A stretch of DNA of 63,801 bases, the filler included, from Licmophora abbreviata (lineage: Eukaryota): assembly GCA_900291995.1 (NCBI GenBank). It is 26 parts of 26 records of this genome, joined end to end, with 100 filler letters (N's around TTAATTAATTAA, not from the genome) between each part and the next. Parts side by side here need not be neighbours in the genome. Positions count along the whole stretch, not along the records: positions 1 to 6,085 come from OLMU01002165.1; positions 6,186 to 10,245 come from OLMU01002166.1; positions 10,346 to 13,569 come from OLMU01002167.1; positions 13,670 to 18,390 come from OLMU01002168.1; positions 18,491 to 21,197 come from OLMU01002169.1; 21 more parts are not named here. The stretch is one strand, 5' to 3'. Shown piece by piece: positions 3,272 to 20,004 of the stretch; the first letter of the stretch is position 1, and the number at the start of each line of letters is the position of its first letter. A program made the position numbers and the translations under genes. The notes under the pieces are model-generated. The model was not told where the DNA came from and made no database searches. It saw nothing but the letters and a program-made list of their open reading frames with translations.

Positions 3272-4120
3272 CTATCGGCTTGAGGTGTGGATAGCGCGAA
3301 TGTCCGCCCCCATGCGCCGCGAGATTTTCTCGGCCATTGCCTCCAATGATGTCACGATTTTCCTTTCCTCTTCGGATGTTAGGGCATCAGCGGGTATGCT
3401 GGCAGCTATGCCCGCAACCGGCATGTTCTGGGAATCGAGCACTATTTTGGCGTAACACCGCATGCCGTCTGAAACCTGTTCATTATCAATGGAATAGCCC
3501 AGTTTCTTGAACTGATTCAGCTCTTCAATAAGAGCGTCGAGACTTTGCACACTCGTGGGAGTCAGCGGCTCGGGCAGGCCGTCGGCGTAGAGTCGACGCA
3601 CATCGCTTTCGCGCATTTGCATCAGAAAAGCCTTACCCGTTGCGGTGAAAGCGGCAGGTAACCTCGCACCGACGCTGAAACTGAAGAAACCCTGATATTT
3701 TTCGGAATTCCGTACAGCAAGATACACAACGTCAGCCCCATCGCGGACTGACAATGTGATCGTTGCGCCGGGGAAATCTGAGTCTGAATCCCAGATCGCA
3801 ATGAACTCGTCCATCACATCGATAGATCGACTGAATGCGTTCGACCAACGCATCACGTGAGGTCCGATTCTGAAGCTTTGATCGTCGCGCCTCATGAGCA
3901 TTTCATGCTCGACCAAAGTTGCGCAGATTCCGTACGCCGTGCTTTTGGGTATTCCGACACGTCTGCTTATTTCTGAGATGGTAAGTCGTTCATCAGAAGA
4001 GGAAATCAGGTCCATGATCTGGATTGTCCGGGAGAGCGCCGGAACCAGACGCCGGGATTCTGATGGGCGCTGATTATCAACTTTTTCTTTTTGACTGGTT
4101 AGTTTTTTTAATTTGTCCAT
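3272..4120 (-). CDS. IclR-family transcriptional regulator
   Basis: VPALSRTIQIMDLI...ISEISRRVGIPKSTAY HTH; RLPAAFTATGKAFL and GYSIDNEQ...GMRCYA effector-domain motifs. Confidence 0.93.
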   Translation of the reverse strand: MDKLKKLTSQKEKVDNQRPSESRRLVPALSRTIQIMDLISSSDERLTISEISRRVGIPKSTAYGICATLVEHEMLMRRDDQSFRIGPHVMRWSNAFSRSIDVMDEFIAIWDSDSDFPGATITLSVRDGADVVYLAVRNSEKYQGFFSFSVGARLPAAFTATGKAFLMQMRESDVRRLYADGLPEPLTPTSVQSLDALIEELNQFKKLGYSIDNEQVSDGMRCYAKIVLDSQNMPVAGIAASIPADALTSEEERKIVTSLEAMAEKISRRMGADIRAIHTSSR

Positions 4121-4158
4121 TTGCCATCATCCGGAATAGCGTTCAGAGACGTAGGGAG

Positions 4159-4176
4159 TGTTCAGCCTATTGAACA
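4159..4176. promoter_or_regulatory. Palindrome, candidate IclR operator
   Basis: TGTTCA-GCCTAT-TGAACA, a perfect 6-6-6 inverted repeat between the divergent IclR gene and the operon. Confidence 0.55.
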
Positions 4177-4268
4177 GTTTGCGCGCACGTCAAGAAGGTT
4201 AAACAAGAAAGTTTCTACACCTGACGTTGCGTAAGACGTTCGAAAATAGCATGCGCTTAGGAGGGTGT

Positions 4269-4661
4269 ATGATGCCGATGAGTGTGCGCGATTGGGCGGT
4301 GAAATTCAGCGATGCATCCGACAATGATCCGACCATTGCAGCAATGGCGAAATACTTCACCTGCAAGTACTTGTGGGACATGGAGGATGCCTCGGTCATC
4401 GTCGAAATGGTCGATGGCAAGGTCTACAGCATAAATATTGATCCCGGGCCAATGGACCCCTGGGATTTCGCGCTGAGGGCATCGGCCCATACATGGCGCG
4501 AATTTTCGCGTCCGGTCCCAAAGCCGATGTACCACGGAATATACTCGGCAAGTTTCCGCAAGGACCTGAAGATCGAGGGCAATCACCTGATCCTCATGCA
4601 GAACCTGCGCAATTTCATCGTTCAGTTCGAACTGCTTCGCAAGATCGGCGTTCCGGTCTGA
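4269..4661 (+). CDS. Small protein, probable SCP2 (sterol/lipid carrier)-like fold
   Basis: AGGAGG RBS before ATG 4269; 130 aa; DFALRASAHTW and LKIEGN resemble SCP2-like motifs. Confidence 0.6.
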   Translation: MMPMSVRDWAVKFSDASDNDPTIAAMAKYFTCKYLWDMEDASVIVEMVDGKVYSINIDPGPMDPWDFALRASAHTWREFSRPVPKPMYHGIYSASFRKDLKIEGNHLILMQNLRNFIVQFELLRKIGVPV

Positions 4662-4700
4662 ACCCGCGGCGTCCGCGTACCCGCTCAAGAGGAGGCCAGC

Positions 4701-5549
4701 ATGGCAAAGCATTCACCAGTCATCGGACGCTACGTGACAATCGATGTTGATGGCTGTGAGTACAAGGTGTTCTACCTGCGCAACGGGCAGGGCATACCGC
4801 TGGTCTGTCAGCACACTGCCGGGTGTCACAACCATCAATGGCGCGATCTGCTGGAAGATGCCGAGGTCACCGAGAACTATGACGTCATCGCTTACGACCT
4901 TGCTCGCCATGGCAAGACCGATCCGCCTCTCAACCAAGAGTGGTGGAAGGAGGAATACAAACTTACCGCAGATCACTACATGAAATTCATCAACGCGTTC
5001 TGTGATGCTTTGGAATTGCGTAATCCGATTTTCATGGGGTCTTCGTTCGGCGGCAACGTCGCCCTGCAACTCGCCCTTTATCATCCGGATAGATATCGCG
5101 CGGTGATACCGGTGGAGGCGGCACATTATGCGCCCGGTTTTTATATCGACTGGTGGCACCATCCGCACGCGAACGCAGCGCAGGTTTGCGCCAGCGGTGT
5201 TTGGGATCTGATGGCCCCGCAAAGCCCCGACATGGACCGCTGGCTGACATGGCACTACTACACGCAGGGCTCGGAAACCTTCAAAGGGGACCTGTATTTC
5301 TACTCCGTGGACCATGATCTGCGTGGAAAGCTGGGTGGGATCGACACGTCGCGATGTCCGGTGGTGATGATGACCGGCACATATGACTATCTCACCCCAC
5401 CCGAAGCGACCGAGGAAACGGCCCGCCAGATCCCCGGCGGAATCTACATCGAGATGGAGGACATCGGCCATTTCCCGATGTCGGAAAATTACCCGCTGTT
5501 TCGGAACTACCTGAAAGAAGCTCTTCGTCTGATTGATGAGCGTAGCTGA
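4701..5549 (+). CDS. Alpha/beta-fold hydrolase
   Basis: GAGGAGG RBS; HTAG oxyanion region, YDLARHGK, nucleophile GSSFGG, GTYDYL acid, IGHFPM histidine. Confidence 0.9.
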   Translation: MAKHSPVIGRYVTIDVDGCEYKVFYLRNGQGIPLVCQHTAGCHNHQWRDLLEDAEVTENYDVIAYDLARHGKTDPPLNQEWWKEEYKLTADHYMKFINAFCDALELRNPIFMGSSFGGNVALQLALYHPDRYRAVIPVEAAHYAPGFYIDWWHHPHANAAQVCASGVWDLMAPQSPDMDRWLTWHYYTQGSETFKGDLYFYSVDHDLRGKLGGIDTSRCPVVMMTGTYDYLTPPEATEETARQIPGGIYIEMEDIGHFPMSENYPLFRNYLKEALRLIDERS

Positions 5550-5569
5550 GCACGTATGGAGAGACCCAA

Positions 5570-6693
5570 ATGAAGATCATTGAGTTCAATGAACGTGGTC
5601 AGCAGGTCGAAAGCGAGTCGCGCTCCATAACGCCGTCTTCAGGAACATCTTTCCTTGCAAAAAGCCCGTCCATCCCGAGCCGCCCCAAGGTGTCCGTTAG
5701 CGCGGGCGTCGAGCTTCACATGTTCCAGACGGGCACGCTTCGGACGCGCAAGCACAACATCAAGATGAACCAGGGTGAGGAAATGTGGGAAATACCCGTG
5801 CCTTGGTATCTGTTGAAACACCCCATGGGCAATGTGGTCATAGATGGCGGAAACGCGGCGGAGGTCGCAATCGACAAGCGGGCGCATTGGGGCGATGTGG
5901 TCGACACCTACGATCCGCATATGGGGCTCAAGGAAAACTGTGTCGAGCAGTGCCGCTCTGTCGGCGTGGAGCCCGAAGACGTGCGCTATGTGGTGATGTC
6001 GCATCTTCATCTGGATCATACCGGTGCGGTCGGGCGCTTTCGCAATGCCCAGCATATCGTCCAGCGCGCGGAATATGACTATGCGNNNNNNNNNNNNNNN
6101 NNNNNNNNNNNNNNNNNNNNNNNNNNNNNTTAATTAATTAANNNNNNNNNNNNNNNNNNNNNNNNNNNNNNNNNNNNNNNNNNNNGCGCTATGTGGTGAT
6201 GTCGCATCTTCATCTGGATCATACCGGTGCGGTCGGGCGCTTTCGCAATGCCCAGCATATCGTCCAGCGCGCGGAATATGACTATGCGTTCAACCCGCAG
6301 TGGTTTGCGGCGGGAGGCTATATCCGGGCGGATTTTGATCGTCCAGGCCTCAACTGGAAATTCCTCGGCGGAGAGATGACCGACAATTTCGATCTCTTCG
6401 GTGATGATGTGATCAAGATGATCTTCACGCCCGGTCATTCGCCCGGTCATCAAAGCTTTCTCATCACCTTGCCGAAAACCGGGCCCGTCCTCCTGACGAT
6501 TGATGCGGCCTACACGATGGATCACTTTGAAAACAAGGCGTTACCTGGCTTTCTTACATCCGCCCAAGATGCGGCCAACTCTGTCGCGAAGCTACGTCGG
6601 ATCGCCGAAAGGACTGGCGCCAAGGTAATAGCGGGCCACGACATGCGACAGTGGGAAGGCATGCTTCACGCGCCCAAGTCGTTCTACGCATGA
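5570..6693 (+). CDS. attM: AttM/BlcC-like N-acyl homoserine lactone / gamma-butyrolactone lactonase (metallo-beta-lactamase fold), ~306 aa after closing the gap
   Basis: HLHLDH Zn motif, HNIKMNQG, IDGGNA, TPGHSPGHQS, TIDAAYT, KALPGFL and GHD closely resemble Agrobacterium AttM as I recall it. 5983-6085 is repeated at 6186-6288 across the linker, so this is one gene. Confidence 0.88.
6086..6185. other. Artificial contig linker (first of 25 in the window)
   Basis: N44-TTAATTAATTAA-N44 puts stops in all six frames and recurs identically up to 62117-62216. Confidence 0.97.
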
Positions 6694-6742
6694 ACAAGAT
6701 GCTGCAAGCACGGGCTGGCAGCGCCACCAGGGAGGAGACCCA

Positions 6743-7918
6743 ATGAAACTTTTGAAAACCGCAGCGATGATTGCCGGATTATCGGTGATCGGCGCGATGG
6801 GGGCGCAGGCGGAGGGGCTCGACGAGCTGAACCCCGATGTCGTGGAGCGTCTCTACAACCCCGAGCTGCTGGACCCGATGCAGCCAATCGGCGCCAGCGC
6901 GTTCCGCGATTTCGTGGCGAAAAACCCCCCGCCATGGAAAATCGGCTATGCCAGCTCTTATGCCGGCAATACGTGGCGCGCGGGCGTCATGCAGGAACTG
7001 CAAAACGAGATCATTCCCGAGTGGAAAGAGCTTGGCCTGCTGGACGAGGTGATCATCACTCAGTCTAATCTCAATGACAGCACCCAGATTCAGCAGATGC
7101 GCCAGCTGGTCGATCAGGGTGTGGATGCCATTTTCGTGTGCTGCTCGAACCCGACAGCGCTTAATCAGACCGTGAAATATGCCTATGACAACGGCGTTCC
7201 GGTGTTTTCACTGACCGGCTATCTGACATCGCCCTATTCGGTCAATTCCTCGGTCAACTACCAGGTGGCCGGATTTGAACTGGGCAAATGGATGGCAGAG
7301 GAAATCGGAGGCGCGGGCAATGTTCTCGTCGTCGAGGGCATTCCAGGCACCTCCGGCTCCGACAGCCAGGACCGCGGTATCAAGGCGGGTCTCGCGTCAT
7401 ATCCGGATATCAAGGTCGTCGGTTCGATTGCGGGTATGTGGACTGACCAGGTCGCCCAAGGCGAGGTCCAGAAATGGCTCGCGACCAATCCGGGCAAACT
7501 GGACGGTATCGTGGTGCAATCGGCGGCTGAAATGGGGGTCTTGCGGGCCTTGCAACAATCGGGCCGCGCGGAGGTTCCGATCACCATCGGCGGCGAGCTT
7601 GGAGCGCTTTGCTACTGGCGCAACAATCCCGATTACGTGTCGGCTGTCTATCAGGTCTGGCCGCCTCAGAACGAGGTTCAGCTTATCTGGAACATCATGA
7701 TGCGTACGCTTCAGGGGCAGGGACCGAAGATCCAGTCGATCCTCGTGGACCCCATCCGCATGACCTATGAAGACATCGAAAAACTGGTCCCTGCGGATTG
7801 CAACGAACAGGATCCAGGCTGGCTGCGGGTTGCGCCCGAAGCCTGGGGTTTGGATTCGGCTTTCCTGGACGATTTCTTCCTGCGTCCGGCTGATCCCACC
7901 AAGTTTCTCGAGAAATAA
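6743..7918 (+). CDS. ABC transporter substrate-binding protein, sugar/ribose-type
   Basis: Signal peptide ending AQA; QIQQMRQLVDQGVDAI and VLVVEGIPG periplasmic-binding-protein motifs. Confidence 0.9.
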   Translation: MKLLKTAAMIAGLSVIGAMGAQAEGLDELNPDVVERLYNPELLDPMQPIGASAFRDFVAKNPPPWKIGYASSYAGNTWRAGVMQELQNEIIPEWKELGLLDEVIITQSNLNDSTQIQQMRQLVDQGVDAIFVCCSNPTALNQTVKYAYDNGVPVFSLTGYLTSPYSVNSSVNYQVAGFELGKWMAEEIGGAGNVLVVEGIPGTSGSDSQDRGIKAGLASYPDIKVVGSIAGMWTDQVAQGEVQKWLATNPGKLDGIVVQSAAEMGVLRALQQSGRAEVPITIGGELGALCYWRNNPDYVSAVYQVWPPQNEVQLIWNIMMRTLQGQGPKIQSILVDPIRMTYEDIEKLVPADCNEQDPGWLRVAPEAWGLDSAFLDDFFLRPADPTKFLEK

Positions 7919-7936
7919 GAGAGCCTGACAAGACAA

Positions 7937-7963
7937 GGCAAGGCCGCGTGAGGCGGCCTTGCC
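7937..7963 (+). terminator. GC-rich stem-loop after the SBP gene (mRNA-stabilising or attenuating hairpin)
   Basis: GGCAAGGCCGC-GTGAG-GCGGCCTTGCC, 11-bp perfect stem, no U-tract. Confidence 0.5.
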
Positions 7964-8001
7964 ATCTGCACCAAGATGACCTCCAAGAGTATCGCTCGGA
8001 C

Positions 8002-9786
8002 ATGCAAGCCCCAACCGAAAAGGCCACAACTGCCGCGAGAAGGGAGACCGTGTCGATCAAGGACGTTAAGAAGTTCTTTGGTCCGACCCGCGCGCTCGAC
8101 GGGGTGTCGTTCTCGGCGGTCGAGGGGGAAATCCATGCGATTGTCGGCGGTAACGGATGCGGCAAGAGCACGTTGGCGAAAGTGATTTCAGGTATTCTGC
8201 CAATAGATGGCGGCGCGGTTACCGTGCTGGGAGAAACCCCGAACTCCCCGGCCGAAAGTCGCGCCATCGGCATATCGACCGTCTATCAGGAAGTGCTTGT
8301 GGCGGACGAGAGCACGGTCGTCGATAATGTGTTCATGGGCTCGGACTCCCTTTTTACAAAGTCAGTGTCCTATGACGAAAAGGTGGCGCGTACCGCCCAA
8401 TTGATGAGTGATCTGTCCGGTGAGGACGTGGACCCGCACGGCCTTGTCGGCAACCTCCCCTTGGGCCTCAAACAATGGATCACCATCGCGCGCGGCATGC
8501 TCAGCGCGCCCCGTCTGCTGATCCTCGATGAGAGCTCAGCCGCTCTAGATTTCGACAGCACCGAGCGGTTGTTTCAGAAAATGCGGGACCTTCGCGATGG
8601 TGGCGCGACGATCCTGATCGTGACGCATCGGATCGCCGAGCTCGTGCGCATCGCTGACAGGGCGACGGTGCTGCGCGATGGCCGTGACGTGGCCGTGCTT
8701 GAAAAACAAGAGATCACCGAGCGCAACTTGCTTGCAGCGATGACCGGCGAAGAAGCCGACGCGGCGCATGGCAGTCTTGTCGCGCCCCAGCCCCAGAGCG
8801 GCGAAATCACGATGCGGGCCGATGGCCTTGTGCTTTGGGCGAATGGCAAGAGCTTCGATTTCGAATTACGCAAAGGCGAGATCGTGGGCGTTGCCGGTCT
8901 GGACGGGCAGGGACAGGACAGTTTCGTTCGTGTCCTCGCGGGCGTTCAATCCGCCGAGGCCGGTCTGCCCTTCATCATGACAGCTCAGGGCGAGGCAACT
9001 CCCGTTCGTGACCTGTTCGATGCGGTCGCGGGCCGCGTCGCTTACGTGTCGGGCGATCGCAAGCGTGAAGGAATTTTTGCCAGCCTGTCGATCTTCGAGA
9101 ACATGGTCATGCCGCTCTATGCCCAGAAGAAAAGCGGTGGGGTGCTGGGACTGATCGACTGGGAGACGTTGAATACGATTTTCGATCGGGAAACCAGGAA
9201 TCTTATGATCAAGTTCGGGGTGAAAAGCGACAGGATCACATCACTCTCGGGCGGCAATCAGCAAAAGGTGCTGATCGGGCGGGGCTTTGCGCAACGACCC
9301 AACACGATCGTTCTGAACGACCCCGCGCGCGGCATCGATGTCGGGGCCAAGACGGAACTCTACAAGCACCTGAGAAGTTTCGCGGAAAGCGGCCGGTCGG
9401 TCGTCTACATGTCCTCGGAAATCGAGGAATTTATCGGGTTCGCCACGCGGGTGATCGTGTTCCGCGACGGTGCCCCTTTCGATGCGTTCGACGGCCGGCG
9501 GTTTGACACGAAGCGGGTTCTCGAAGCCATGTTCGGGCAGACCGACGGCAGCGGTCTGGATACGGTCTATGGGCTGACGCCGACGCGCTCGGCCGATGCA
9601 GGCGACAGTGTCACTCCAAGGGATCGCAAAATCGGTTCGGTCGTCTATCCCCCCGCGGATGGCAGCTTGCCGCCGATCCGGGTCGTGCAGACACAACCCG
9701 ATCCCGTTAAGGCTTTCGACCGAAGCAAGATCCGGATCGTCGAATTCGGACGTGATGGCCAGATCGCCCGGCAGGGACGACCATGA
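8002..9786 (+). CDS. Sugar-type ABC ATP-binding protein (two NBDs) with a C-terminal extension
   Basis: Walker A GGNGCGKST, LLILDE, VTHR; second half DRKREG, LSGGNQQK, RGIDVGAK; ~80 extra C-terminal residues. Confidence 0.93.
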   Translation: MQAPTEKATTAARRETVSIKDVKKFFGPTRALDGVSFSAVEGEIHAIVGGNGCGKSTLAKVISGILPIDGGAVTVLGETPNSPAESRAIGISTVYQEVLVADESTVVDNVFMGSDSLFTKSVSYDEKVARTAQLMSDLSGEDVDPHGLVGNLPLGLKQWITIARGMLSAPRLLILDESSAALDFDSTERLFQKMRDLRDGGATILIVTHRIAELVRIADRATVLRDGRDVAVLEKQEITERNLLAAMTGEEADAAHGSLVAPQPQSGEITMRADGLVLWANGKSFDFELRKGEIVGVAGLDGQGQDSFVRVLAGVQSAEAGLPFIMTAQGEATPVRDLFDAVAGRVAYVSGDRKREGIFASLSIFENMVMPLYAQKKSGGVLGLIDWETLNTIFDRETRNLMIKFGVKSDRITSLSGGNQQKVLIGRGFAQRPNTIVLNDPARGIDVGAKTELYKHLRSFAESGRSVVYMSSEIEEFIGFATRVIVFRDGAPFDAFDGRRFDTKRVLEAMFGQTDGSGLDTVYGLTPTRSADAGDSVTPRDRKIGSVVYPPADGSLPPIRVVQTQPDPVKAFDRSKIRIVEFGRDGQIARQGRP

Positions 9787-11363
9787 AGATCGCCGAGATC
9801 AAGGACCCGGTCGCCGTCGAGACCGAGACCGTCGAGACGCCGCGCAGCACTGCAGGGCGGTCGGATCCATCGATGATTGTCCCGATCACCCTGTTTTATG
9901 TGCTCATGATCTTCGCCGTGATCCGCTCCCCAAGCCTGGTCAGCGCATCGGGGATTGGCAGCGCGGTGATCGTGGCAACGCCACTGATCTTGGCGACCTA
10001 TGCGCTGATGGCTTCGGTGATTTCGGGGCGCGGCACGGTCGATCTGTCGATCGGGCCTCTCATCGGGTTCATCAACGTCACGCTCGTCCAGTTGGTGACA
10101 GCGGGATATTTCAGCAATCCCTTCGCGTTTTTCGGCCTCGCCTTCCTGCTGGGGGCGGCCTATCAGCTGATTTTCGCGCTGATTGTGGTGTACGTACGTG
10201 TCCAACCCATCATCGTGTCGCTCAGCGGTTTTCTTGCGCTTTCAGNNNNNNNNNNNNNNNNNNNNNNNNNNNNNNNNNNNNNNNNNNNNTTAATTAATTA
10301 ANNNNNNNNNNNNNNNNNNNNNNNNNNNNNNNNNNNNNNNNNNNNTGTCCAACCCATCATCGTGTCGCTCAGCGGTTTTCTTGCGCTTTCAGGTATCAAT
10401 CTGGTGATCCTGCCGCGCCCGGGTGGCATGGCGCCCGAGTGGATGGCGACCTGGGGGCTGGGAACGACTGTTTTTTCTCCGGTCCTCTGGCTGCTGGTGA
10501 TTGCGACACTGGCGTGGGTCCTGTTTACGCGCACGGCGTTTTACACGCATCTGCGTTTGATGGGGTCAGATGAACGTGCGGCCTACACCTCGGGTGTTCC
10601 CATCGCGATCGTGCGTATCGGCGCGCACATCATTTCAGGTCTTTTCGCCGCCCTTGCCGCCATCACATTTACCGCCCTGATCTCTTCGGGAGATCCATCG
10701 CAGGGCACGACATATACCTTGATTGCCGTCACCGCCTTGGTACTTGGCGGTGCCTCACTGGCGGGGGGCAGGGCAAGCGTTTTCGGCTGCGCTCTTGGGG
10801 CGTTGAACCTCTATCTGATTACCTTCGTGCTGGCCACGTTCAACTTCGGCGCGGTCCAGAGCTTCGTGACCGATCTGGCCTATGGCACGATCCTTGTTGG
10901 CTCGCTGCTTCTGACCCTGGTGCTGCCACTGATCCAACGCTATGCGCGGAACTTTTCGCCGTTGCTCTACTTCGTGGCGCTCGGGGTGGTGGTATTGGGC
11001 GTTGTTCTGCACGCGACATATGATTACGGCACAGTTTCCGATGCTTATGTCGTGCCGCCTTTCCCCGGCCCGCTCGACGCGGTGAGCACCATGCGGGGTA
11101 TGTTCGAGACCGGAGCGCTGGACCCGCAGACCGAAGCGCTGCGCGCGGCTGCGCGACCGCTGATTTGGGGTGTTGTGATCCTCGTGGTGCTGGCCGGGCT
11201 GGCTCGAGTGGCGGTGACCGAAGGCAAGACACGTGACGTCGGCCCGTTGGTGTTTCTCGTGATTGGGCTGATCGTTCTGGTCACGGCCTACTCCATCAGT
11301 CAGCCCGATGGCTTCTCCTTCGGCACCGGCTCGGATGCCCCGCATGAGGAGGGCAATCCATGA
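9783..11363 (+). CDS. ABC permease (RbsC-like), ~477 aa after closing the gap
   Basis: VDLSIG, GSDERAAYTSGV, LVLGGASLAGGRAS. 10199-10245 is repeated at 10346-10392 across the linker. ATGA overlap with the ATPase gene. Confidence 0.9.
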
Positions 11364-12739
11364 GCCAGACAGACGCCAGCCCCCAACAACTGAGCCTTGC
11401 CACCCGCTTGTTGGGGTTGATCGCAGGCGGCATATTGACCCTGCTGAGCGTCATCTTTGGTTTTGTTCAGGATCAACCTGTTCAAAGCATCATTCTTTAT
11501 GCGCTGGCCACGATGGCGCTGTTCTTCTGGGCGTGGAAGTTCATCCTTCCGCATTTTCTGGTCGAACGCGAACATACCGAAGACACGCATGGACCCGGCC
11601 CGTTTCGGCGGATCTGGATCGACTATCGGCCGTCGCTGATCGGTCTGGCGCTGATTGTTCTCGCGTTCTTCATTCTGGCGGCAAGCATCGACGGATTTCT
11701 CAACGGCTGGAACGTCCTGTCGCTGATCATCCTGCTGGCCATCATCGTCGCGACGCGCACGATCGGCCCACTCTTCGAGACGAACCGCTCGGCCTTCATT
11801 GGTATCATGGTCCTGATCGGGCTGTTTTCTGTCGGTGCGATGAATATCGAAGGGTTTTCTTCGGGCTGGAACATCAAGTCGATGCTGCTCTTTGCCTCTT
11901 TTCTTGGCCTTGCGTCGGTCGGGCAGACCCTCGTTGCGCTGTTGGGCGGGCTGGATTTGTCGATCCCCTTCGTGATCGGGGCCGCGAATGTGGGCCTGTT
12001 GTATCTTATCAGCCTCGGGGTGCCGCCATGGCTGGCCTTTTGCATCGTGCTGGTGATCGGGGCGTTGCTGGGGGTGATCAACGGTCTGCTCAGTTATCGT
12101 CTTCAGGGGCAGGCGCTCATCGTGACGCTCGGCACCGGGTTTGCCATTTCGGGCGGTGTTCAGATCATCACGTCCATCGGTACGGCCTATGGCGGCAACG
12201 TCTTCGGCACGGTTCCCGGTTGGCTGTCCAATCTGGCGGCCATGAATGGCAAGACATTCGGCATTCCGGTGCCCGCAGCCATTTTCATCTGGGCTCTGAC
12301 CGCGCTCATCCTGGTCGTGGGGCTCCGCGTCACAGTTTACGGTCGCTATCTCTATGCTCTCGGGGTGAACCGGATATCAGCGAAACGGGTGATGGTCTCG
12401 GAACTGAAATACTGGGTGATGGCCTACACGGTTTCAGGGTTCTTCTCGGCCTTGACCGGAGCGCTTTTGCTTGGCTGGTCGGGGGGCGGCTTCATTGGTG
12501 TGGGCGAGCAGTATCTGTTCCTCACACTGGCGGCTGTGGTCGTCGGGGGGACATCTCTTCTGGGCGGACACGGCGGCTACGGCTTTACCGTCATCGGCGT
12601 TTTGGTGCTTCAGGTCCTGTCGTCGTTCCTCGTCGGAATCGGTCTCGATTATGAATGGCAGCAGTTCATCTACGGCCTGCTGATCTTGCCCATGGTCGCG
12701 CTTTACGCGCGCTCGCCCCACATACGCACGCAGATATGA
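11360..12739 (+). CDS. ABC permease (RbsC-like), 459 aa
   Basis: GQTLVALLGGLDLSI, GRYLYALGVN, AAVVVGGTSLLGGHG; ATGA overlap with the upstream permease. Confidence 0.92.
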   Translation: MSQTDASPQQLSLATRLLGLIAGGILTLLSVIFGFVQDQPVQSIILYALATMALFFWAWKFILPHFLVEREHTEDTHGPGPFRRIWIDYRPSLIGLALIVLAFFILAASIDGFLNGWNVLSLIILLAIIVATRTIGPLFETNRSAFIGIMVLIGLFSVGAMNIEGFSSGWNIKSMLLFASFLGLASVGQTLVALLGGLDLSIPFVIGAANVGLLYLISLGVPPWLAFCIVLVIGALLGVINGLLSYRLQGQALIVTLGTGFAISGGVQIITSIGTAYGGNVFGTVPGWLSNLAAMNGKTFGIPVPAAIFIWALTALILVVGLRVTVYGRYLYALGVNRISAKRVMVSELKYWVMAYTVSGFFSALTGALLLGWSGGGFIGVGEQYLFLTLAAVVVGGTSLLGGHGGYGFTVIGVLVLQVLSSFLVGIGLDYEWQQFIYGLLILPMVALYARSPHIRTQI

Positions 12740-12776
12740 CCGGACTCGAGGATCATATGAATTGGAGGTTCGCTAC

Positions 12777-13484
12777 ATGACCGTCTTTGAAACACCAGAC
12801 CTGACTGCGGCAAGCTATTCTGCGGCCCTCTTCGGATTGATCGCCACGAGTGTGCTCTTGCTGATGGGCACGGCTTGGGTCAGGGGGCACTGGAAGCTGG
12901 TCGTGACGCTGTGCGCCTGCTCCACCATCATCGGGGCACTGGCCGCGTATGAGGCCCGGGCCGCCTGGCAAAGTGGAGCTGTCCCCGTGGTTTACCATTA
13001 TGTCGGCTGGGTCGTGACGATGCCCATTCAGGTGCTGGCGCTCTTCTTCATGGCCAATTGCGTTGGCAAGGTCTCGATGGGCCTGTTCTGGCGGCTGGTC
13101 GTGGTCTCGGTTCTGATGGTTTTCGTTCGCTACCTTGGCGAGGCCGGATACATGCATCCGACCCTTGCCTTCCTCATCGGGTTGATCTTCTGGCTCTACG
13201 TTCTCGGAGAGCTGTTTTTCGGCAAGATGGATCTTGCGATCCGGGATTCTCTGAACAAGCCGGTGATCAGAGGCTACTTCTGGCTGCGTCTGATCGTGAC
13301 CATCGGCTGGGCGATCTATCCGCTTGGCAATTTCATCACCAGCTTTGGCGGGTATGATGACGGTGGCGCCTTAGCAGTCGCCTATAACGTGGCCGATTTC
13401 CTCAATCGAATGGCTTTCGGTGCCGCTGTCTTGTCGGCTGGCATGCTCGCCATGCAGTCAGCCGATGAAAAGGTCCAAGGCTGA
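12777..13484 (+). CDS. Proteorhodopsin-like 7TM opsin lacking the Schiff-base lysine (flotillin-associated rhodopsin type)
   Basis: GGAGG RBS; helix C PVVYHYVGWVVTMP, YLGEAG, helix F IGWAIYPLG, helix G YNVADFLNRMAFG where proteorhodopsins have YNLADFVNKILFG. Confidence 0.88.
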   Translation: MTVFETPDLTAASYSAALFGLIATSVLLLMGTAWVRGHWKLVVTLCACSTIIGALAAYEARAAWQSGAVPVVYHYVGWVVTMPIQVLALFFMANCVGKVSMGLFWRLVVVSVLMVFVRYLGEAGYMHPTLAFLIGLIFWLYVLGELFFGKMDLAIRDSLNKPVIRGYFWLRLIVTIGWAIYPLGNFITSFGGYDDGGALAVAYNVADFLNRMAFGAAVLSAGMLAMQSADEKVQG

Positions 13485-13530
13485 TGCGAATTCCTGATGA
13501 TATGAACACTCTACCTGGAGGGCTGATGCC

Positions 13531-15025
13531 ATGAACGGTGCAGACGTTATTGCAATCATAATCCTTGCCNNNNNNNNNNNNNNNNNNNNNNNNNNNNNNN
13601 NNNNNNNNNNNNNTTAATTAATTAANNNNNNNNNNNNNNNNNNNNNNNNNNNNNNNNNNNNNNNNNNNNCGGCGGACGCTCAACCCTGATCAACTGCGCG
13701 AACTGGTGGTGGGCCGCTTTGTGGACGGCATGGGGGCCGCCTCTGCGGTCATGACGCTGGAAGAGATTCAGGAGAACCGCCGCAAATTCGCGCAGGAAGT
13801 CCGCAAGGAAGTGGCCGAAAGCCTGGCGCTCGACGGGTTGGAGCTTGAATCGGTCTCGCTGACCTCTCTGGATCAGGCCGATATCTCGATGTTCAACCCC
13901 TCGAACACCTTCGACTCCGAAGGTTTGACCCGACTTGTCCAACAGATTGAAAGCCGCAAGAAAACGCGCAACGACATCGAAAAGGACACGGATATCGCGA
14001 TCCGCTCCAAGAACCTTGAGGCCGAGAAAAAGGCCCTCGATATCGGACGGGATACGGAATACGCGCGGCTGTTGAACGAATCCGAGATCTCGATCGAGCG
14101 TGCGCAGCGCAAGGCCGAAATCGCGCGCGAGAACGCAGCGCGGGAGCGCGAGATCGAAGAAATCCGCATCAGCGAGCGTGAACAGGTCGAGCTTGCGCGC
14201 ATCAAGAGCGAAACCGAGATCGAGTCGATGGAGATCAAGCGCCGCGAGCAGATCGAGATCGAAGAACAGCAACGCGAAATCGCGCTGTCGCAGAAATCGA
14301 AGGAACGCTCAGAAGTCCAGGCCCTGACCGAGGAGGCCGTTGCCGCTGCCACTGAGGCGCGCGAACGGGTTCACACGATCCGCGACGTGGAAATTGCCAA
14401 CCGCCATAAGACGGTCGAATTGATCGAAGCGGCCAAAGATGCCGAACGAGAGGCCGTTCGCATGAAGATCCTTGCCGAAGCCGAAGAGCGGGCGGCGCAA
14501 AACCGGGCCGAGGCCGTGCGCATCGCGGCCTCGGCCGAGGAAGAGCGCCTGCGCGTCGAAGCGGAAGGCGCCACCAAGCTCAACGAGGCTGAAAACCTTC
14601 GCTCGGAGGCCAGCCGCCGCAGCGCCTTGCACAAGCGTCTTGTCGATAATCTGCCGTCGATCATCCGCGAAAGCGTCAAACCGATGGAACGGATCGGCGA
14701 GATCAAGATCCTGCACGTGGATGGTCTGCCCGGCTTCTCGAACGCGGCAGGTGGTGGCGGCGAGGGCGGTTCTGGCAAGGGCGAGGGAAGCTCACCTCCG
14801 AGCGAGGGAAATCTTGCCGATCAGGTGGTCCAGTCCGCTCTGAGGTATCGCTCCCAAGCTCCGTTCGTGGACCAACTTCTGGGGGAGATCGGTATGGACC
14901 CCGGGAACATTCACAGACCCGAGGCACTCCGCGATCTTTCCAAGATCGTCTATTCCGAGCCGGCGTCAGCGAGTGATGGACCCGCCCCGAAAGGGCCCAA
15001 GCGTCCATCCGCATCCAAGAAGTGA
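13531..15025 (+). CDS. Flotillin / SPFH band-7 protein (YqiK type), interrupted by an unresolved gap
   Basis: GGAGG RBS and MNGADVIAIIILA before the gap; after it RTLNPDQLRELV..RFVD, GLELESVSLTSLDQ, FNPSNTFDSEGL, AE-rich coiled coil, SVKPMERIGEIKI. The two pieces could belong to two different genes. Confidence 0.88.
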
Positions 15026-15078
15026 TCGCCCTCCCGCAGCCGGCGGCTGCGGGGATAAACTGAACAGGAGGTGCAGCG

Positions 15079-15516
15079 ATGAACGAGCGAGACGATGCCG
15101 TCGACCGGAGCCTTCTGGTATTCGCTGTCTGGGCGGCGATCGGGTCCATCGGGCTTTTGTTGATCATCGAAGGGTTCCAGCAGGACGTTTACTGGATCGC
15201 TTTGACCGGGATTGGCTGCATCATCGCCACGTTTTGTGCGCATATCATCGTCAATGCGGTCTACGGCACGGGCTTCAGTACAGGTGAAACCGCTCTTGGA
15301 CTCACCAGTTTCGGCGTTTTGGTGCTGGTCTTTGTGCTGTCCGTTCTGGCGGGCGGTGCCTCGGCAACGGATTTCTACATCGGGCTGACCCTGTTTGGGA
15401 CGCTGATCGTCGGTTTCCTGACCTATCTGCTGACAAGGCATGGCTTGCGCGGGGCGTTCTCGAAATTTCATGTGGCGGTCGGGCATGACGTGTCTGTTCC
15501 CACCGGGAAGGGATAG
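15079..15516 (+). CDS. Hypothetical membrane protein (~4 TM)
   Basis: AGGAGG RBS, 145 aa, four hydrophobic segments, tightly spaced within the operon. Confidence 0.75.
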   Translation: MNERDDAVDRSLLVFAVWAAIGSIGLLLIIEGFQQDVYWIALTGIGCIIATFCAHIIVNAVYGTGFSTGETALGLTSFGVLVLVFVLSVLAGGASATDFYIGLTLFGTLIVGFLTYLLTRHGLRGAFSKFHVAVGHDVSVPTGKG

Positions 15517-15521
15517 CCTGA

Positions 15522-17462
15522 ATGCCAGCTCCATCGCCTGTCATGTGGATCTTGTTGTTTGGGTTCGTCTATATTGCCGTCGTGCTCTTCTGGGCCCGCC
15601 AGGCTGCCACGGCCAATGGAAACTACCAGAGCTATTTTTCAGCAGGCCACTCTCTGTCGCCTTGGGTCAGCGCGCTGGTGCTGGCCGGCAGTTCGGTGTC
15701 CGCGTGGTTTACCCTTGGCTCTGCCGACATCCTGGCTCGCGACGGCTTCGTTCACGGATATCTCCTGCAGGCTGGTGTCTTGTTGGCGCTGCCCGGCGTC
15801 CTCTTTTTCAAGCGCAGTTGGTTCATCGCGCAACGCTATCGGGTCTCGTCTCAGGCCGAGCTTTTCAAACTGTATTACGACAGCCAGGCCCTTGTCGTGA
15901 TCGTCGCCTGCGTGGCGCTGTTGTTCGCGGTGGGTTTTGCCGGCATGCAACTTCGTGCGATCTCGCAGATCGCATCGTCTGTGTCCGGTGGATCGATCTC
16001 GGCCTTTACCATAGGCTGCGCACTCAGCCTCATACTGCTGGGCTACGTCGTTATCGGCGGGATGCGGGCAATCGGATTCCTTGGTGTCTTGCAGACGGTC
16101 AGCCTGATCTCGGCAACCCTGGTGCTCAGTTTTCTGATCTTGGTCGAGGCGGGCCTGATCGGGGCGATCAACGCGCGGATGCAGGCCTTGGCGGCAGACA
16201 GTGCCGGGGCGCAGGCTTTCGAAGTCAGCGGCGTGATCCAATTCGTGGCAGGGCTCGGGCGGGGTAGTTTCTATGACCATCCTGTTTCGGCTGTCACCAA
16301 TCTGAGTTCCGCCTATGCCCTGCTCGGGATCGGGCTTAGCCCATTCGCCCTGAAGATCGTTCTGTCCACACGCAACACGAAGGCAATTGCCGCTGGACAA
16401 ACCTGGGTTCTGGCGGGGTTCTTTGGCTTGCTTGTTCTTTTGCCCGTCGGTGTCATCGGCGCCGCGGGCCTTGGCCGCCCGGAATTCATCAGCCACAGCT
16501 ATCTGGCGGCTTTGGCACAATCGTCGCCATGGCTTACGGCCTGGGTCGTGCTGGGTTTTGCCGCCGGCATGCAGGTGATGGCCGGATTGGCGCTTCTGGT
16601 AGCGGCAGAAACTGTTGTACGCCATGTCTACAAGCCCTTCTTCGCAAGCGCGATGTCGCGCAGGCAGACTGTCACCCTGACCCGGATCTTTGTGGCTGTT
16701 CTGGCGGTTGGTGTCGTGTTGATGGCCTTTCTTGCACCGGTCAGCACGTCGGCTCTGGGGGCTTTTGCGCTCTCGGCATCGGCGCAGTTGTTGATCCCGA
16801 TGCTGGGTCTGTGCTGGTTCGGCTGGATGACACGCCCTGCCGTTCTGGCTGGCGTGGGCTTCGGTTTGTTCGCGGCTTTCGTGACCGATGCGCTCGGGAT
16901 CGGCATTCTTGGCTATCTGGGGCTGGACGTGCCATGGGGCCGCTATCCCTGGACCATCCATTCGGCCGCGTGGGGCCTGTTTTTCAATATTCTCGTGTGT
17001 CTGCTTGTCTCGGCTATCAGCCAGAACGCCGCCAGAACCGAGTTTCGGGAGCATCTGCGGGCCTTTGTTTCCGAGGCATTGAGCGGGCAGGGCACGGCTC
17101 CCTTGAACAGCTATGCCTGGGCGGCCGGACTTGCTTGGGGATTTCTTGCCGTGGGGCCGGGGCTGATTTTTGGGAATTATGCCTTTGTCGGTGATGACGG
17201 CTGGAGCATGGATTTTCCATCGCTTTGGGTCTGGGCCATGCTGTTCTGGCTTCTGGGCGTGACCCTTGTTTGGCTTCTCGCGTACCGAATGCAGATGGCG
17301 TCGCATGTCGAGTTGGACATCACATCCTATGAGCCCCCCCCGACCCTGCGGCCCGACCAATCCGCCGCAGAGGCGCGACGTCTGAGAAGCCTGATCATGT
17401 TTGCTCTGGCAGGTGCGGGATTGGTCATCCTAACGGTTTGGAGTTTTGGGGGTGCGGGATGA
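15522..17462 (+). CDS. Sodium:solute symporter (SSS) family protein
   Basis: YFSAGHSLSPW, SVSAWFTLG, YVVIGGMRAIG..LQ; many TM helices; 646 aa. Confidence 0.88.
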   Translation: MPAPSPVMWILLFGFVYIAVVLFWARQAATANGNYQSYFSAGHSLSPWVSALVLAGSSVSAWFTLGSADILARDGFVHGYLLQAGVLLALPGVLFFKRSWFIAQRYRVSSQAELFKLYYDSQALVVIVACVALLFAVGFAGMQLRAISQIASSVSGGSISAFTIGCALSLILLGYVVIGGMRAIGFLGVLQTVSLISATLVLSFLILVEAGLIGAINARMQALAADSAGAQAFEVSGVIQFVAGLGRGSFYDHPVSAVTNLSSAYALLGIGLSPFALKIVLSTRNTKAIAAGQTWVLAGFFGLLVLLPVGVIGAAGLGRPEFISHSYLAALAQSSPWLTAWVVLGFAAGMQVMAGLALLVAAETVVRHVYKPFFASAMSRRQTVTLTRIFVAVLAVGVVLMAFLAPVSTSALGAFALSASAQLLIPMLGLCWFGWMTRPAVLAGVGFGLFAAFVTDALGIGILGYLGLDVPWGRYPWTIHSAAWGLFFNILVCLLVSAISQNAARTEFREHLRAFVSEALSGQGTAPLNSYAWAAGLAWGFLAVGPGLIFGNYAFVGDDGWSMDFPSLWVWAMLFWLLGVTLVWLLAYRMQMASHVELDITSYEPPPTLRPDQSAAEARRLRSLIMFALAGAGLVILTVWSFGGAG

Positions 17463-17531
17463 TGTTTTGCCCAAAAAGCACAGAGGCCTGTCCGGGCTTT
17501 GCGTGCAGAAACACTGGATGAAGGATCACTC

Positions 17532-18787
17532 ATGACGCCGTTCACATTCAACACCTCGCCCAGCATTCGATTTGGTGCCGGAATGATTGCCAATCTGGGT
17601 GACATCGTGCGCGCAGAAATCGGTACGCGGGTGCTTCTGGTGACCGATCCCGGCATGATGGCGACCGGGATCGTGGATCGGGTCTGCGATGTGCTCCGGA
17701 CGGCAGAGGTGGACGTCGTGCTCTATGCCGATGTTCAGGCTGATCCGCCGGAAGCGGTCATCGAGGCGGCGACACAGGCCGCCAAAACCGGCTCTGTCGA
17801 GGGGGTCGTCGGTCTTGGGGGCGGTTCGTCGCTTGACGTGGCCAAGTTGGCGGCGCTCTTGGCAACCGGACAGCAAAACCTTTCCGACGTCTACGGTGTG
17901 GGGAATGCCCGTGGCCCCAAACTTCCGTTGATCCTGATCCCGACAACCTCGGGCACCGGGTCTGAAGTGACGCCAATCTCGATCGTGACGACCGGCAAGA
18001 GCGAGAAGATGGGCGTGGTCTCGCCGGTTATCCTGCCCGAGATCGCCTTGCTCGATCCCGATCTGACACTGGGTCTGCCCCCCCATGTCACGGCCGCGAC
18101 CGGTATCGATGCCATGGTCCACGCCATCGAGGCTTACGCCTCGGCCAGCCCAAACAACAATCCCGTGTCCCGCAGTCTGGCCAAAGAGGCTCTGCGATTG
18201 ATGGGCGGTGCTCTGGAGCGGGCCGTCACGACGCCAGATGACATCGCGGCGCGTACAGACATGCTTCTGGGGTCGATGCTGGCCGGACAGGCTTTCGCCA
18301 ACTCGCCGGTTGCCGCCGTGCACGCGCTGGCCTATCCGATCGGTGGTCATTTCAAGGTGCCGCACGGGTTGTCGAATGCGCTCGTTCTTCNNNNNNNNNN
18401 NNNNNNNNNNNNNNNNNNNNNNNNNNNNNNNNNNTTAATTAATTAANNNNNNNNNNNNNNNNNNNNNNNNNNNNNNNNNNNNNNNNNNNNCATGTGCTGC
18501 GCTCCAATGCCGTGACCTCGCCCGAACCTTACGCCGAGATCGCCGCCTGCGCCTTTCCCGCACTTGAAGGGCTGGCGTCACAGGCGGCTGCTTCGGCCTT
18601 TATTGAGGCGATGCAAGACCTTTCGAAAAGATGTGGCTTGCAGCAGCACTTGCGCGATGTCGGCATTGCGCAGGACGATCTGCCCCTTCTGGCCCGTGAT
18701 GCGATGAACCAGACACGGCTGCTCGTGAACAATCCGCGTCCTTTGACCGAGGCGGATGCGCTGGCGATCTATCAGGCGGCTTGGTAG
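17532..18787 (+). CDS. Iron-containing alcohol dehydrogenase (split by a linker)
   Basis: GLGGGSSLD, PTTSGTGSE, DAMVHAIE, HALAY, HGLSNA; C-terminus NNPRPL after the linker. Confidence 0.92.
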
Positions 18788-19068: not shown

Positions 19069-20004
19069 ATGAAATATTTCCCTCATCCGATCACCAAGAT
19101 AAACCTCAAACTTATCCAGGGATTTGTACTTGTAGCTCAGCAAAAGAGCTTTAAGCGCGCCGCGGATTTGTCAGGATTCACGCAATCGGCAATGAGCGCG
19201 CAGATCCGCACTCTGGAAGAGCAGTTGGGGACCCCCTTGTTCAATCGAACAACCCGGCATGTGGAAATGACCAAAGAGGGTGAACACCTGTTCAAAAGTG
19301 CAAAACACGCCATGGAAGAGATCAGTGCAAGCCTTCTGGATATTCAGAACGCGATTGATCTCAAGGTGGGGCATGTGGACATCGTCTGTTCACCGGCCTT
19401 TGCCATGGGCGGCCTTGGCGAGCTGATCGCGGAATTCAGCAAGGAATGCACCGATATCAGCATATCCATCCGTGAAGCGAGCATTGACGGTATCGTGAGC
19501 GCCCTCATGGTTGATGGGTTCGATTTCGGTATCGGACCAATGGTCGATGTGCCAGACCTCGACTTCGACCCTTTAATCAGTGATCCGATCGTGGCGGTGT
19601 ATCCAAGAGCCATGATTACGACGCGGGCAAAAAGCGTGTCCATCGAAGATCTGGCCAAATTGCCGCTTTTGTTGCTGCATAAATCGACGTCACTCAGACA
19701 GCAATTGGACGCGATTGCCTCCGAGAAAGGTGTCATGCTGCACGGGCAATACGAATTTTCTCAACCCTCGACGCTGGTTGCAATGGCCGAAGCTGGTCTG
19801 GGCGTTGCGTTGGTGCCAGAGGCCGTTGCGCGGCAGCGCCATCTGGTCGCGTCGAGCATTCTCAAGATCCGAGATGTGAAACTGAGGCGCATGTATGCGA
19901 TTATCACTCCGGCAGCGAAAAACCTTTCACCAGCCGCGCGTCGGATGGTTCAAATCCTGAAAAGCAAGAGCGGGACCCACGGAAAGGTTTTGCTAGATCA
20001 ATGA
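19069..20004 (+). CDS. LysR-family transcriptional regulator
   Basis: SFKRAA..TQSAMSAQIRTLEEQLGTPLFNRTTR; AGLGVALVP. Confidence 0.93.
   Translation: MKYFPHPITKINLKLIQGFVLVAQQKSFKRAADLSGFTQSAMSAQIRTLEEQLGTPLFNRTTRHVEMTKEGEHLFKSAKHAMEEISASLLDIQNAIDLKVGHVDIVCSPAFAMGGLGELIAEFSKECTDISISIREASIDGIVSALMVDGFDFGIGPMVDVPDLDFDPLISDPIVAVYPRAMITTRAKSVSIEDLAKLPLLLLHKSTSLRQQLDAIASEKGVMLHGQYEFSQPSTLVAMAEAGLGVALVPEAVARQRHLVASSILKIRDVKLRRMYAIITPAAKNLSPAARRMVQILKSKSGTHGKVLLDQ

Follow-up and report, generated by a model that had tools for sequence, protein, structure and literature searches.

The stretch analysed here, referred to below as the window, comprises 63,801 nucleotides of draft sequence deposited for Licmophora abbreviata (GCA_900291995.1), in which 26 contigs are joined by 25 linkers of the form N44-TTAATTAATTAA-N44. 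Between positions 3272 and 18787 it carries a gene cluster that unites a lysine-less opsin, a flotillin, two transport systems and enzymes related to those of the Agrobacterium blc lactone pathway, and we consider it highly probable that this cluster is a member of the family of flotillin-associated rhodopsin (FAR) gene clusters. Open reading frame (ORF) calling and family scans place one gene for an IclR-family regulator on the minus strand, facing twelve co-oriented plus-strand genes (4269-18787). The genes and associated features are the following:

3272-4120, minus strand: IclR-family regulator, BlcR-like (Pfam HTH_IclR and IclR_C)
4159-4176, no strand assigned: palindrome TGTTCA-N6-TGAACA, likely IclR operator
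4269-4661, plus strand: SCP2-like small protein, 130 aa (weak fold matches)
4701-5549, plus strand: alpha/beta hydrolase (Pfam Abhydrolase_1)
5570-6693, plus strand: AttM/BlcC-family metallo-lactonase, 306 aa in the reference contig L001 described below (NCBIfam NF045700; split by the linker at 6086-6185)
5570-5611, plus strand: N-terminal tag of the lactonase, MKIIEF-x3-G-x2-VE, on a flexible linker of ~45 residues (ortholog comparison)
6743-7918, plus strand: CUT2 (sugar-type) periplasmic binding protein (Pfam Peripla_BP_4, 133 bits)
7937-7963 (L001 5323-5349), plus strand: 11-bp GC-rich hairpin in the spacer between the binding-protein and ATPase genes (folding compared with shuffles)
8002-9786, plus strand: ATP-binding cassette (ABC) ATPase with two nucleotide-binding domains; its tail of ~90 residues spans 9520-9786 (Pfam ABC_tran, two stretches)
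9727-9765, plus strand: C-terminal tag of the ATPase, KIRIVEFG-x2-G, the motif of the lactonase (ortholog comparison)
9783-11363, plus strand: ABC permease 1, 477 aa in L001 (Pfam BPD_transp_2; linker at 10246-10345 with duplicated ends)
11360-12739, plus strand: ABC permease 2, 459 aa, extended by ~140 residues at the N-terminus (Pfam BPD_transp_2, residues 172-443)
12762-13484, plus strand, start perhaps at ATG 12777: lysine-less flotillin-associated rhodopsin (Pfam Bac_rhodopsin)
13532-15025, plus strand: flotillin, 566 aa in L001 (Pfam Band_7 and Flot on the L001 protein; 306 nt lost at the linker)
15079-15516, plus strand: membrane protein with four transmembrane segments (4-TM protein), ending 5 nt before the symporter gene (ORF call, no family)
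15522-17462, plus strand: sodium/solute symporter family protein, 646 aa (Pfam SSF)
17499-18787, plus strand: iron-containing alcohol dehydrogenase (Fe-ADH), BlcB-like (Pfam Fe-ADH and ADH_Fe_C; 2 nt lost at 18391-18490)

The first-pass annotation of this stretch, made from the sequence alone, had described eleven or more co-oriented genes opposite the IclR gene; the count now stands at twelve, and the identities then given to the genes are upheld by Pfam, NCBIfam and fold matches. Of the "several" ATGA overlaps that it mentioned, only two are present (ATPase/permease 1 and permease 1/permease 2), and the gaps between neighbouring operon genes measure 5-83 nt. Four of the linkers fall within operon genes. 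As reference we used L001, a 491-kb contig of Roseovarius litoreus DSM 28249 that shares 95-96% nucleotide identity with the window from position 3069 onward and passes unbroken through all four operon joins, thereby confirming every one of them, including the join at 13570-13669 on which the first-pass annotation had cast doubt. Compared with L001, the contig ends overlap by 103 nt at the join 6086-6185 and by 47 nt at 10246-10345, 2 nt are lost inside the Fe-ADH gene at 18391-18490, and 306 nt of the flotillin SPFH domain, corresponding to L001 10809-11114, are lost at 13570-13669. Repeated ends of 47-103 nt flank some of the linkers and produce duplicated peptide ends in ORF calls, for instance in the lactonase and permease 1; these repeated contig ends are assembly artefacts.

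A gene cluster with much of this content has already been published. The name flotillin-associated rhodopsin goes back to Haro-Moreno et al. (2023, mSystems, PMC10308929), who described a FAR gene cluster conserved across SAR11, HIMB59 and Pseudothioglobus. Their Table S2 has several further families beside the rhodopsin and the flotillin: for transport, a sugar-type ABC binding protein, ABC permeases with 14 transmembrane segments and a sodium/solute symporter; among the enzymes, an N-acyl homoserine lactonase (AttM), an iron alcohol dehydrogenase and an alpha/beta hydrolase (284 aa); and a protein of the SCP2 superfamily (129 aa). The table marks the ABC and symporter genes as occurring in all three marine lineages. 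The SAR11 counterpart of the 4269-4661 product carries the SCP2 superfamily annotation in this table, and the sequences printed there are, as judged by eye on unaligned proteins, strikingly similar to those encoded in the window. As in the window, the rhodopsin gene of the published cluster lies directly upstream of the flotillin gene on the same strand; Arg is among the residues reported at the retinal lysine site, where lysine-less relatives from freshwater metagenomes carry Q, T, L or R; and a SAR11 permease (466 aa, 14 transmembrane segments, marked "All") shows extra length like that of the permeases described here. The claim of the first-pass annotation that the locus is a candidate new system in an undescribed combination of genes therefore fails, since Table S2 has the same families.

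The two arrangements also differ. Gene order is not the same, the window having the ABC genes between the lactonase and the opsin genes on one strand, and the published cluster includes a dimethylformamidase-like small/large pair (marked "All" in Table S2), for which family scans of the proteins of 3272-18787, and of that region only, returned no match. Unlike the published cluster, the one described here has an IclR regulator and a conserved putative operator, and its host is a marine Roseovarius whose genome, at 57% GC, is not streamlined and which has a close relative in culture and no proteorhodopsin paralog. The term "IclR" has no occurrence in the supplements of PMC10308929, nor do "lacton-", "quorum" and "Rhizobi-" occur in its main text, and none of the papers searched unites rhodopsin, flotillin and lactonase. 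Taken together, the best explanation of the locus is a Roseovarius copy of the FAR cluster, set up as one IclR-controlled operon.

Pairwise scores place the opsin in the FAR clade. Its best relatives in the PDB are the flotillin-associated rhodopsins 9r21 (E 2e-46, over residues 13-233) and 9r23 (E 3e-46), and the best rhodopsins outside the FARs in the same search score 1.5e-31 and 3.5e-31. The cryo-EM structure 9R21 is that of PsFAR (Kovalev et al. 2025, bioRxiv 10.1101/2025.04.29.651185), a retinal-free protein of the same seven-helix family whose gene also lies beside a flotillin gene. PsFAR keeps the retinal lysine, K213, and its pocket is blocked by H84 and E120. In the window opsin, in contrast, the lysine is replaced by Arg (R216 in the alignment), M87 faces H84 at a position where FARs are said to conserve an aromatic residue, and E120 is faced by R123, an Arg that is invariant here. 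The same comparison shows that the helix C Arg and Asp typical of proteorhodopsins are His and Gly in the window opsin.

We tabulated these residues for a set of 121 proteins, made up of the window protein and the 120 homologs that ranked best among 911 matches. H79, at the proteorhodopsin Arg position, G82, at the position of the counter-ion Asp, and R123 are present in all 121 proteins, D212 is kept in 120 of the 121 and R216 in 119. Since these key residues stay fixed, the gene would not be a broken one but would encode a conserved retinal-free protein, and the opsin is accordingly predicted from its sequence to bind no retinal and to act independently of light. A second search, against representatives at 50% identity, yielded 604 matches at E <= 0.001; the lysine site is occupied by R, L or K in the nearest full-length representatives and the E120 site by R or E, while the ordinary D-T-E proteorhodopsins among them have K and G, respectively.

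A natural loss of the Schiff-base lysine within the rhodopsin fold is also known from Rh-noK, a xanthorhodopsin-like protein of marine Betaproteobacteria. According to PMC10308929 and the 2025 preprint, Rh-noK genes stand in tandem with a working proteorhodopsin gene, and pumping returns once the lysine is restored. The window opsin differs from Rh-noK in that R. litoreus and other isolate genomes hold no pump and in that counter-ion and pocket residues have been replaced as well. We scanned five isolate genomes (R. litoreus, Hoeflea alexandrii, Ensifer adhaerens Lc04, Roseiarcus fermentans and Zhengella mangrovi), and each of the five has exactly one match to Bac_rhodopsin (PF01036), located at the FAR locus. 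A retinal-synthesis gene (PF15461, BCD/Blh) was found in none of the five; it was likewise found in none of 14 control genomes, so that this result is uninformative.

The opsin stop codon (13484) and the flotillin ATG (13532) are separated by a 47-nt gap on the same strand, and the two genes are adjacent in all six loci of an opsin-anchored set drawn from Roseovarius, Phyllobacteriaceae, Nitratireductor and alphaproteobacterial metagenome-assembled genomes. The full-length flotillin of L001 matches Band_7 over residues 38-183 (55.8 bits) and Flot over residues 390-524 (119.3 bits). It reaches only 75.6 bits against the NCBIfam FloT equivalog, whose cut-off is 700, and is therefore not a FloT ortholog. 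Genes with a Flot domain number one, that of the cluster, in R. litoreus and Roseiarcus, and two to four in the other three isolate genomes.

The arrangement of the cluster as a whole is conserved, contrary to one of the outcomes that would have spoken against the proposal of the first-pass annotation. The order from lactonase to Fe-ADH is kept in 6/6 opsin-anchored loci, with the IclR, SCP2-like and hydrolase genes also present in five; the sixth locus, L006, has no match for these three. A second set, anchored on the hydrolase, comprised the best 80 loci among relatives in 121 species genomes, taken with a 10-kb flank that ends at the 4-TM gene. The full order IclR (minus strand), SCP2-like protein, hydrolase, lactonase, binding protein, ATPase, permease 1, permease 2, opsin, flotillin and 4-TM protein is found in 58 of these 80 loci, most of the others being cut by contig ends, and the IclR gene itself in 68. 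Eleven loci (L076-L086) are rearranged, with the SCP2-like and hydrolase genes behind the flotillin gene, as in SAR11; an opsin match (38-50% identity) directly precedes the flotillin gene in each of the five rearranged loci inspected. Cultured carriers include Hoeflea alexandrii, Zhengella mangrovi, Roseiarcus fermentans, Rhizobium aquaticum and Ensifer adhaerens Lc04 as well as Ciceribacter, Stappia and Gellertiella, and soil and root bacteria are among the hosts. The 2025 structural preprint, by comparison, describes all FAR producers as uncultivated, and PMC10308929 could not assess whether lysine-less FAR hosts possess a second rhodopsin, for want of isolates.

Several observations bear on mobility. 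In Hoeflea sp. IMCC20628 the entire cluster is annotated on a 123-kb plasmid, where it adjoins an IS5 transposase gene, and a plasmid of Martelella sp. AD-3 holds a full-length lactonase match of 67% identity. A survey of one genome per genus of the window organism's family (201 genomes, E <= 1e-10) gave matches in four, and the FAR itself was found in the nearest genome only (G001, 99% identity). Given this single occurrence among 201 genomes and the carriage on plasmids, the cluster is a patchy, mobile accessory unit. The three remaining genomes, G016, G097 and G102, belong to other genera of the family and hold a rhodopsin-like gene 35-36% identical to the window opsin. The window is homologous to the R. 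litoreus contig only from position 3069; to the left of this point it departs from L001, and an integrase-core (rve_3) transposase gene lies at 1644-2726. The operon borders a strain-specific insertion. On the right, a LysR gene (19069-20004) was considered as a further member of the operon, which it follows both here and in L001; it has no match in loci L002-L006 and probably lies outside the unit.

The regulator and two of the enzymes relate the cluster to the blcR-blcABC (attJ-attKLM) locus on the At plasmid (pAt) of Agrobacterium, an analogy that the first-pass annotation had drawn and that can now be given in figures. Over its full length the IclR protein is 36% identical to BlcR of A. 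fabrum pAt (271 residues, E 8e-60), and the Fe-ADH is 52% identical to BlcB, the iron-containing alcohol dehydrogenase of the pAt blc operon (386 residues, full length, E 2e-132). The lactonase shares 59% identity with AttM/BlcC of pAt, exceeds the cut-off of the NCBIfam AttM equivalog NF045700 (422 bits against 390), matches the N-acylhomoserine lactonase of PDB entry 9khq over residues 46-305 (E 5e-108) and has an invariant HLHLDH motif (alignment A2). The Fe-ADH scores 250 bits against the NCBIfam model of 4-hydroxybutyrate dehydrogenase, the cut-off of which is 500; it is thus a BlcB homolog by sequence, for which 4-hydroxybutyrate is a candidate substrate. A review (PMC5924552) states that the blcABC products break down gamma-butyrolactone (GBL) by way of 4-hydroxybutyrate (gamma-hydroxybutyrate, GHB) and succinic semialdehyde (SSA), and that the operon is de-repressed by these compounds.

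The annotated order on pAt is blcR on the minus strand, succinate-semialdehyde dehydrogenase, iron alcohol dehydrogenase and attM. A divergent IclR gene, an Fe-ADH and an AttM lactonase are thus common to both loci, but their gene order differs, the semialdehyde dehydrogenase BlcA is part of the operon on pAt and not here, and the pAt locus is without transporters, opsin, flotillin, SCP2-like protein and hydrolase. Furthermore, the AttM of pAt lacks the N-terminal tag that is seen on the window lactonase.

This tag is shared with the ABC ATPase. The lactonase starts with MKIIEFNERGQQVE, and in the ATPase KIRIVEFGRDGQI stands a few residues before the C-terminus; the pattern [IVM][RK][IV][IVL][ED][FY][DGN] has exactly two six-frame matches in the 63.8-kb window, one at the lactonase start and the other in the ATPase tail. 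Among the orthologs, 65 of 67 lactonases start with M[KR][IVL][IVL][ESD][FY], the two exceptions having Q for E or a GTG start, and the tag is present in all 72 orthologous ATPase tails, where the surrounding linkers are variable. Both the AttM of pAt and 9khq align with the lactonase only from residue 46-47, and tag and linker are therefore an addition to the enzyme. In the AlphaFold model, residues 1-46 have predicted local distance difference test (pLDDT) values of 41-46 with short strands at 4-6 and 12-14, consistent with a flexible tail that bears a hairpin-like element. Complex prediction with the full ATPase and lactonase gave an ipSAE of 0.00 in two runs made without controls, which is evidence neither way. 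Most simply, the shared motif would serve to anchor the lactonase to the importer, whether by direct contact or via a receptor common to both. The shared tag in this way suggests, indirectly, that a hydrolase is co-located with the importer, one element of the platform idea of the first-pass annotation.

Variants of these tails occur elsewhere. A second, weaker motif, P-I-[RK]-[VIL]-V-[EQ], lies ~20 residues before the ATPase tag in Roseovarius-type loci (window ~9670-9700; L013, L020 and L029), and the ATPase tails of L076-L083 contain two full copies of the tag. On the Hoeflea sp. IMCC20628 plasmid (L088) the lactonase gene spans 14001-14936; the attM gene of RefSeq begins at 14166, past the tag-bearing start at 14001, and the public annotation therefore hides the tag. 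The feature table of L088 also lacks permease 1.

The importer is a complete CUT2 set, with a Peripla_BP_4 binding protein, a single ATPase with two nucleotide-binding domains and two BPD_transp_2 permeases. The best PDB relatives of the binding protein are CUT2 sugar-binding proteins (E 7e-25), and the NCBIfam matches of the ATPase, whose start at ATG 8002 agrees with that in L001, are CUT2 ATPases, every one of them under its cut-off. Both permeases exceed the CUT2 permease models by ~140-150 residues, permease 1 at its C-terminus, where it extends ~150 residues past the end of the ribose-permease model, and permease 2 at its N-terminus. The symporter, whose NCBIfam matches are weak, is encoded in 6/6 opsin-anchored loci. 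The 4-TM protein has no Pfam or NCBIfam family, and its neighbours in the Protein Atlas are unnamed clusters only; its gene is found in 61 of the 80 hydrolase-anchored loci (32-97% identity), most of whose flanks stop just beyond it.

The two proteins encoded at the start of the operon are widely retained. With 79-99% identity across 80 loci of several classes, the hydrolase is by this measure the best conserved protein of the cluster; its GSSFG motif, D229 and H257 are invariant (alignment A1), and its top NCBIfam match is 3-oxoadipate enol-lactonase, at a score far under the cut-off. The SCP2-like protein accompanies it in 79 of the 80 loci, with 60-100% identity. The 4269-4661 product has no match in Pfam or NCBIfam, and a Foldseek search with its AlphaFold model (mean pLDDT 74.6) returned nothing at E <= 0.001. 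The top PDB matches of this model are nonetheless all SCP2 proteins (UbiJ-SCP2 and T. thermophilus SCP2), with E values of 1.9e-3 to 2.5e-2 and TM-scores of 0.45-0.60. The assignment to SCP2 is accordingly a tentative one, drawn from fold matches that are weak yet consistent.

The palindrome TGTTCAGCCTATTGAACA in the IclR/SCP2 spacer (4159-4176) is the single perfect match in the whole window. Its core, GTTC-N8-GAAC, recurs in 58 of 68 orthologous IclR/SCP2 spacers, where shuffles would lead one to expect 0.2, and some of the ten other spacers show by eye variants altered on both half-sites, such as GTCCA..TGGAC. Most simply, this palindrome would be the operator of the IclR protein. A second near-palindrome with one mismatch, at 13890-13907 inside the flotillin gene, is within chance expectation and was rejected. 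In L001 the operon was scanned and has four promoter-like and 17 terminator-like sites, against expected numbers of 6.1 and 13.6; nothing there rises above chance, and no terminator signal distinguishes the end of the operon.

RNA data came from four algae-associated metatranscriptome libraries of one year, possibly of one campaign, with contigs derived from a relative of ~93% identity. Such contigs cover the operon in the four runs. One of 8,637 nt, corresponding to L001 6534-15170, reads from the ATPase gene through those of the permeases, opsin, flotillin, 4-TM protein and symporter into that of the Fe-ADH and includes the flotillin stretch lost from the window, and a contig from another run leads from the binding-protein gene into the opsin gene. 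RNA-library contigs thus bridge the opsin and flotillin genes and those of the transporter. Contig breaks fall in the IclR/SCP2 spacer in three runs, two of which show sequencing-adapter ends, and we read these breaks in favour of transcription because divergent transcripts would give them and contaminating DNA would not. We regard the RNA-library contigs as supportive, not decisive, for transcription as an operon. Their depths vary along it and amount to one figure per contig, so that genes cannot be ranked. The spacer with the hairpin at 7937-7963 folds at -33 kcal/mol (z -3.4, 0/200 shuffles as good) and lacks a U tract; in three runs, RNA-library contigs terminate no more than ~150 nt from this hairpin, which may be an intercistronic stabiliser or a processing site favouring the upstream genes.

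For the operon as a whole we propose a reading to which we give about an even chance, namely IclR-controlled uptake and breakdown of a lactone, with the opsin and the flotillin organising the membrane. By analogy with BlcR, the IclR protein would repress the operon at the palindrome until a pathway intermediate appears, such as the hydroxy acid or the semialdehyde formed from it. A small ring compound of the lactone type would enter by the sugar-type ABC importer, by the symporter with the 4-TM protein as its partner, or by both, and the tagged AttM-type lactonase, held at the importer via the shared tag, would open the ring on entry. The Fe-ADH would then oxidise the hydroxy acid, an unlinked semialdehyde dehydrogenase would complete the route into central metabolism, and the SCP2-like protein and the alpha/beta hydrolase would deal with whichever part of the substrate is hydrophobic or an ester. 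Acting without light, the retinal-free opsin and the flotillin would gather both transporters and the tethered enzyme into a single membrane patch; in serving the lactone module they may act as a sensor or as a platform.

A number of points weigh against this proposal. The blc set is incomplete, tblastn (E <= 1e-5) having found no BlcA semialdehyde dehydrogenase in the operon or the window; the R. litoreus genome encodes homologs (62% and 53% identity) on contigs other than that of the cluster. The binding protein is of the CUT2 sugar type and reaches no NCBIfam equivalog. The SCP2-like protein and the hydrolase, the best conserved members, are left unexplained by the blc analogy. The RNA contigs prove no single transcript and leave DNA carry-over possible, and the runs may stem from one campaign. 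According to PMC10308929, other FAR clusters carry other ring- or amide-opening enzymes (such as the dimethylformamidase-like pair and PxpA); as the enzyme set varies among FAR clusters, the core of opsin, flotillin and transporters is not specific for lactones. Lastly, the roles given to the opsin and the flotillin, including any contact with transporters or enzymes, are inference only.

Several other explanations were weighed against lactone uptake and breakdown. The opsin and the flotillin could form a self-contained membrane-microdomain module that merely travels with transport and catabolic genes on a mobile island, as might be expected from the plasmids of Hoeflea sp. IMCC20628 and Martelella sp. 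AD-3, the insertion sequence transposase at the left border where R. litoreus homology stops, the restriction of the FAR to one of 201 family genomes (G001) and the differing enzyme sets of FAR clusters. We consider this improbable given that the opsin gene stands between those of permease 2 and flotillin in 58/80 loci and is still upstream of the flotillin gene in the five rearranged loci inspected, that the spacers measure just 22-53 nt, that one RNA-library contig bridges permease, opsin, flotillin and symporter genes, and that Table S2 has ABC and symporter genes in all three marine lineages. To the same degree we doubt that the operon serves quorum quenching, importing the acyl-homoserine lactones (AHLs) of neighbours for inactivation by the lactonase, with the SCP2-like protein and the hydrolase handling the acyl chain. 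The lactonase does pass the equivalog named "AttM family quorum-quenching N-acyl homoserine lactonase", its nearest relative of solved structure bears the name N-acylhomoserine lactonase, BlcC cleaves many AHLs (PMC5924552), and a lipid-like ligand would suit the SCP2 fold; however, the same review has the Agrobacterium blc operon induced by GBL, GHB and SSA and not by AHLs and describes the quenching role of BlcC as debated, and catabolism accords better with a binding protein of the sugar type and with an Fe-ADH that shares 52% identity with BlcB.

An oxidative sugar route, in which a sugar or polyol is imported, a dehydrogenase makes the sugar lactone and the lactonase opens it, would turn the lactone into an intermediate instead of a nutrient. 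The binding protein, ATPase and permeases, which best match CUT2 monosaccharide importers, agree with such a route, but the dehydrogenase is nearest to the 4-hydroxybutyrate-oxidising enzyme of blc (52%) and not near sugar dehydrogenases, the lactonase is an AttM equivalog, and a substrate already in lactone form on arrival suits a lactonase tethered at the importer; we rate this route slightly lower again, as decidedly improbable. The idea that the FAR forms a hetero-complex with the proton pump of the cell and tunes it for dim light is very unlikely for this clade. It was proposed for marine FAR hosts, which according to PMC10308929 always had a proteorhodopsin paralog, whereas the only Bac_rhodopsin match in 5/5 isolate genomes is the FAR itself and the hosts here include soil and root bacteria.

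Beyond the proposed lactone operon, a bolder interpretation, which we regard as unlikely and put forward as speculation, would make the FAR cluster a membrane-bound uptake-and-hydrolysis assembly in which the tag is a portable docking signal and an oligomer of the opsin a light-independent structural or gating subunit. The beta-hairpin-like tag on the ATPase tail and on whichever ring-opening enzyme is encoded next to it would then act like cargo-loading peptides and recruit the enzyme to the transporter, with the flotillin as a scaffold above.

The data presented here place a complete cluster in culturable bacteria, on plasmids in some of them. With carriers such as R. litoreus DSM 28249, Hoeflea, Ensifer adhaerens, Rhizobium and Roseiarcus, laboratory work on a rhodopsin predicted to be light-blind becomes feasible. 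The repressor, the candidate operator and the blc-homologous enzymes point to concrete candidate inducers, the tag on lactonase and ATPase offers a handle on how the parts are held together, and one published hypothesis, that of a proteorhodopsin helper, becomes very unlikely for this clade. Were the bolder assembly true, it would represent the first assigned job for a naturally retinal-free rhodopsin and the first defined client set for a bacterial flotillin.

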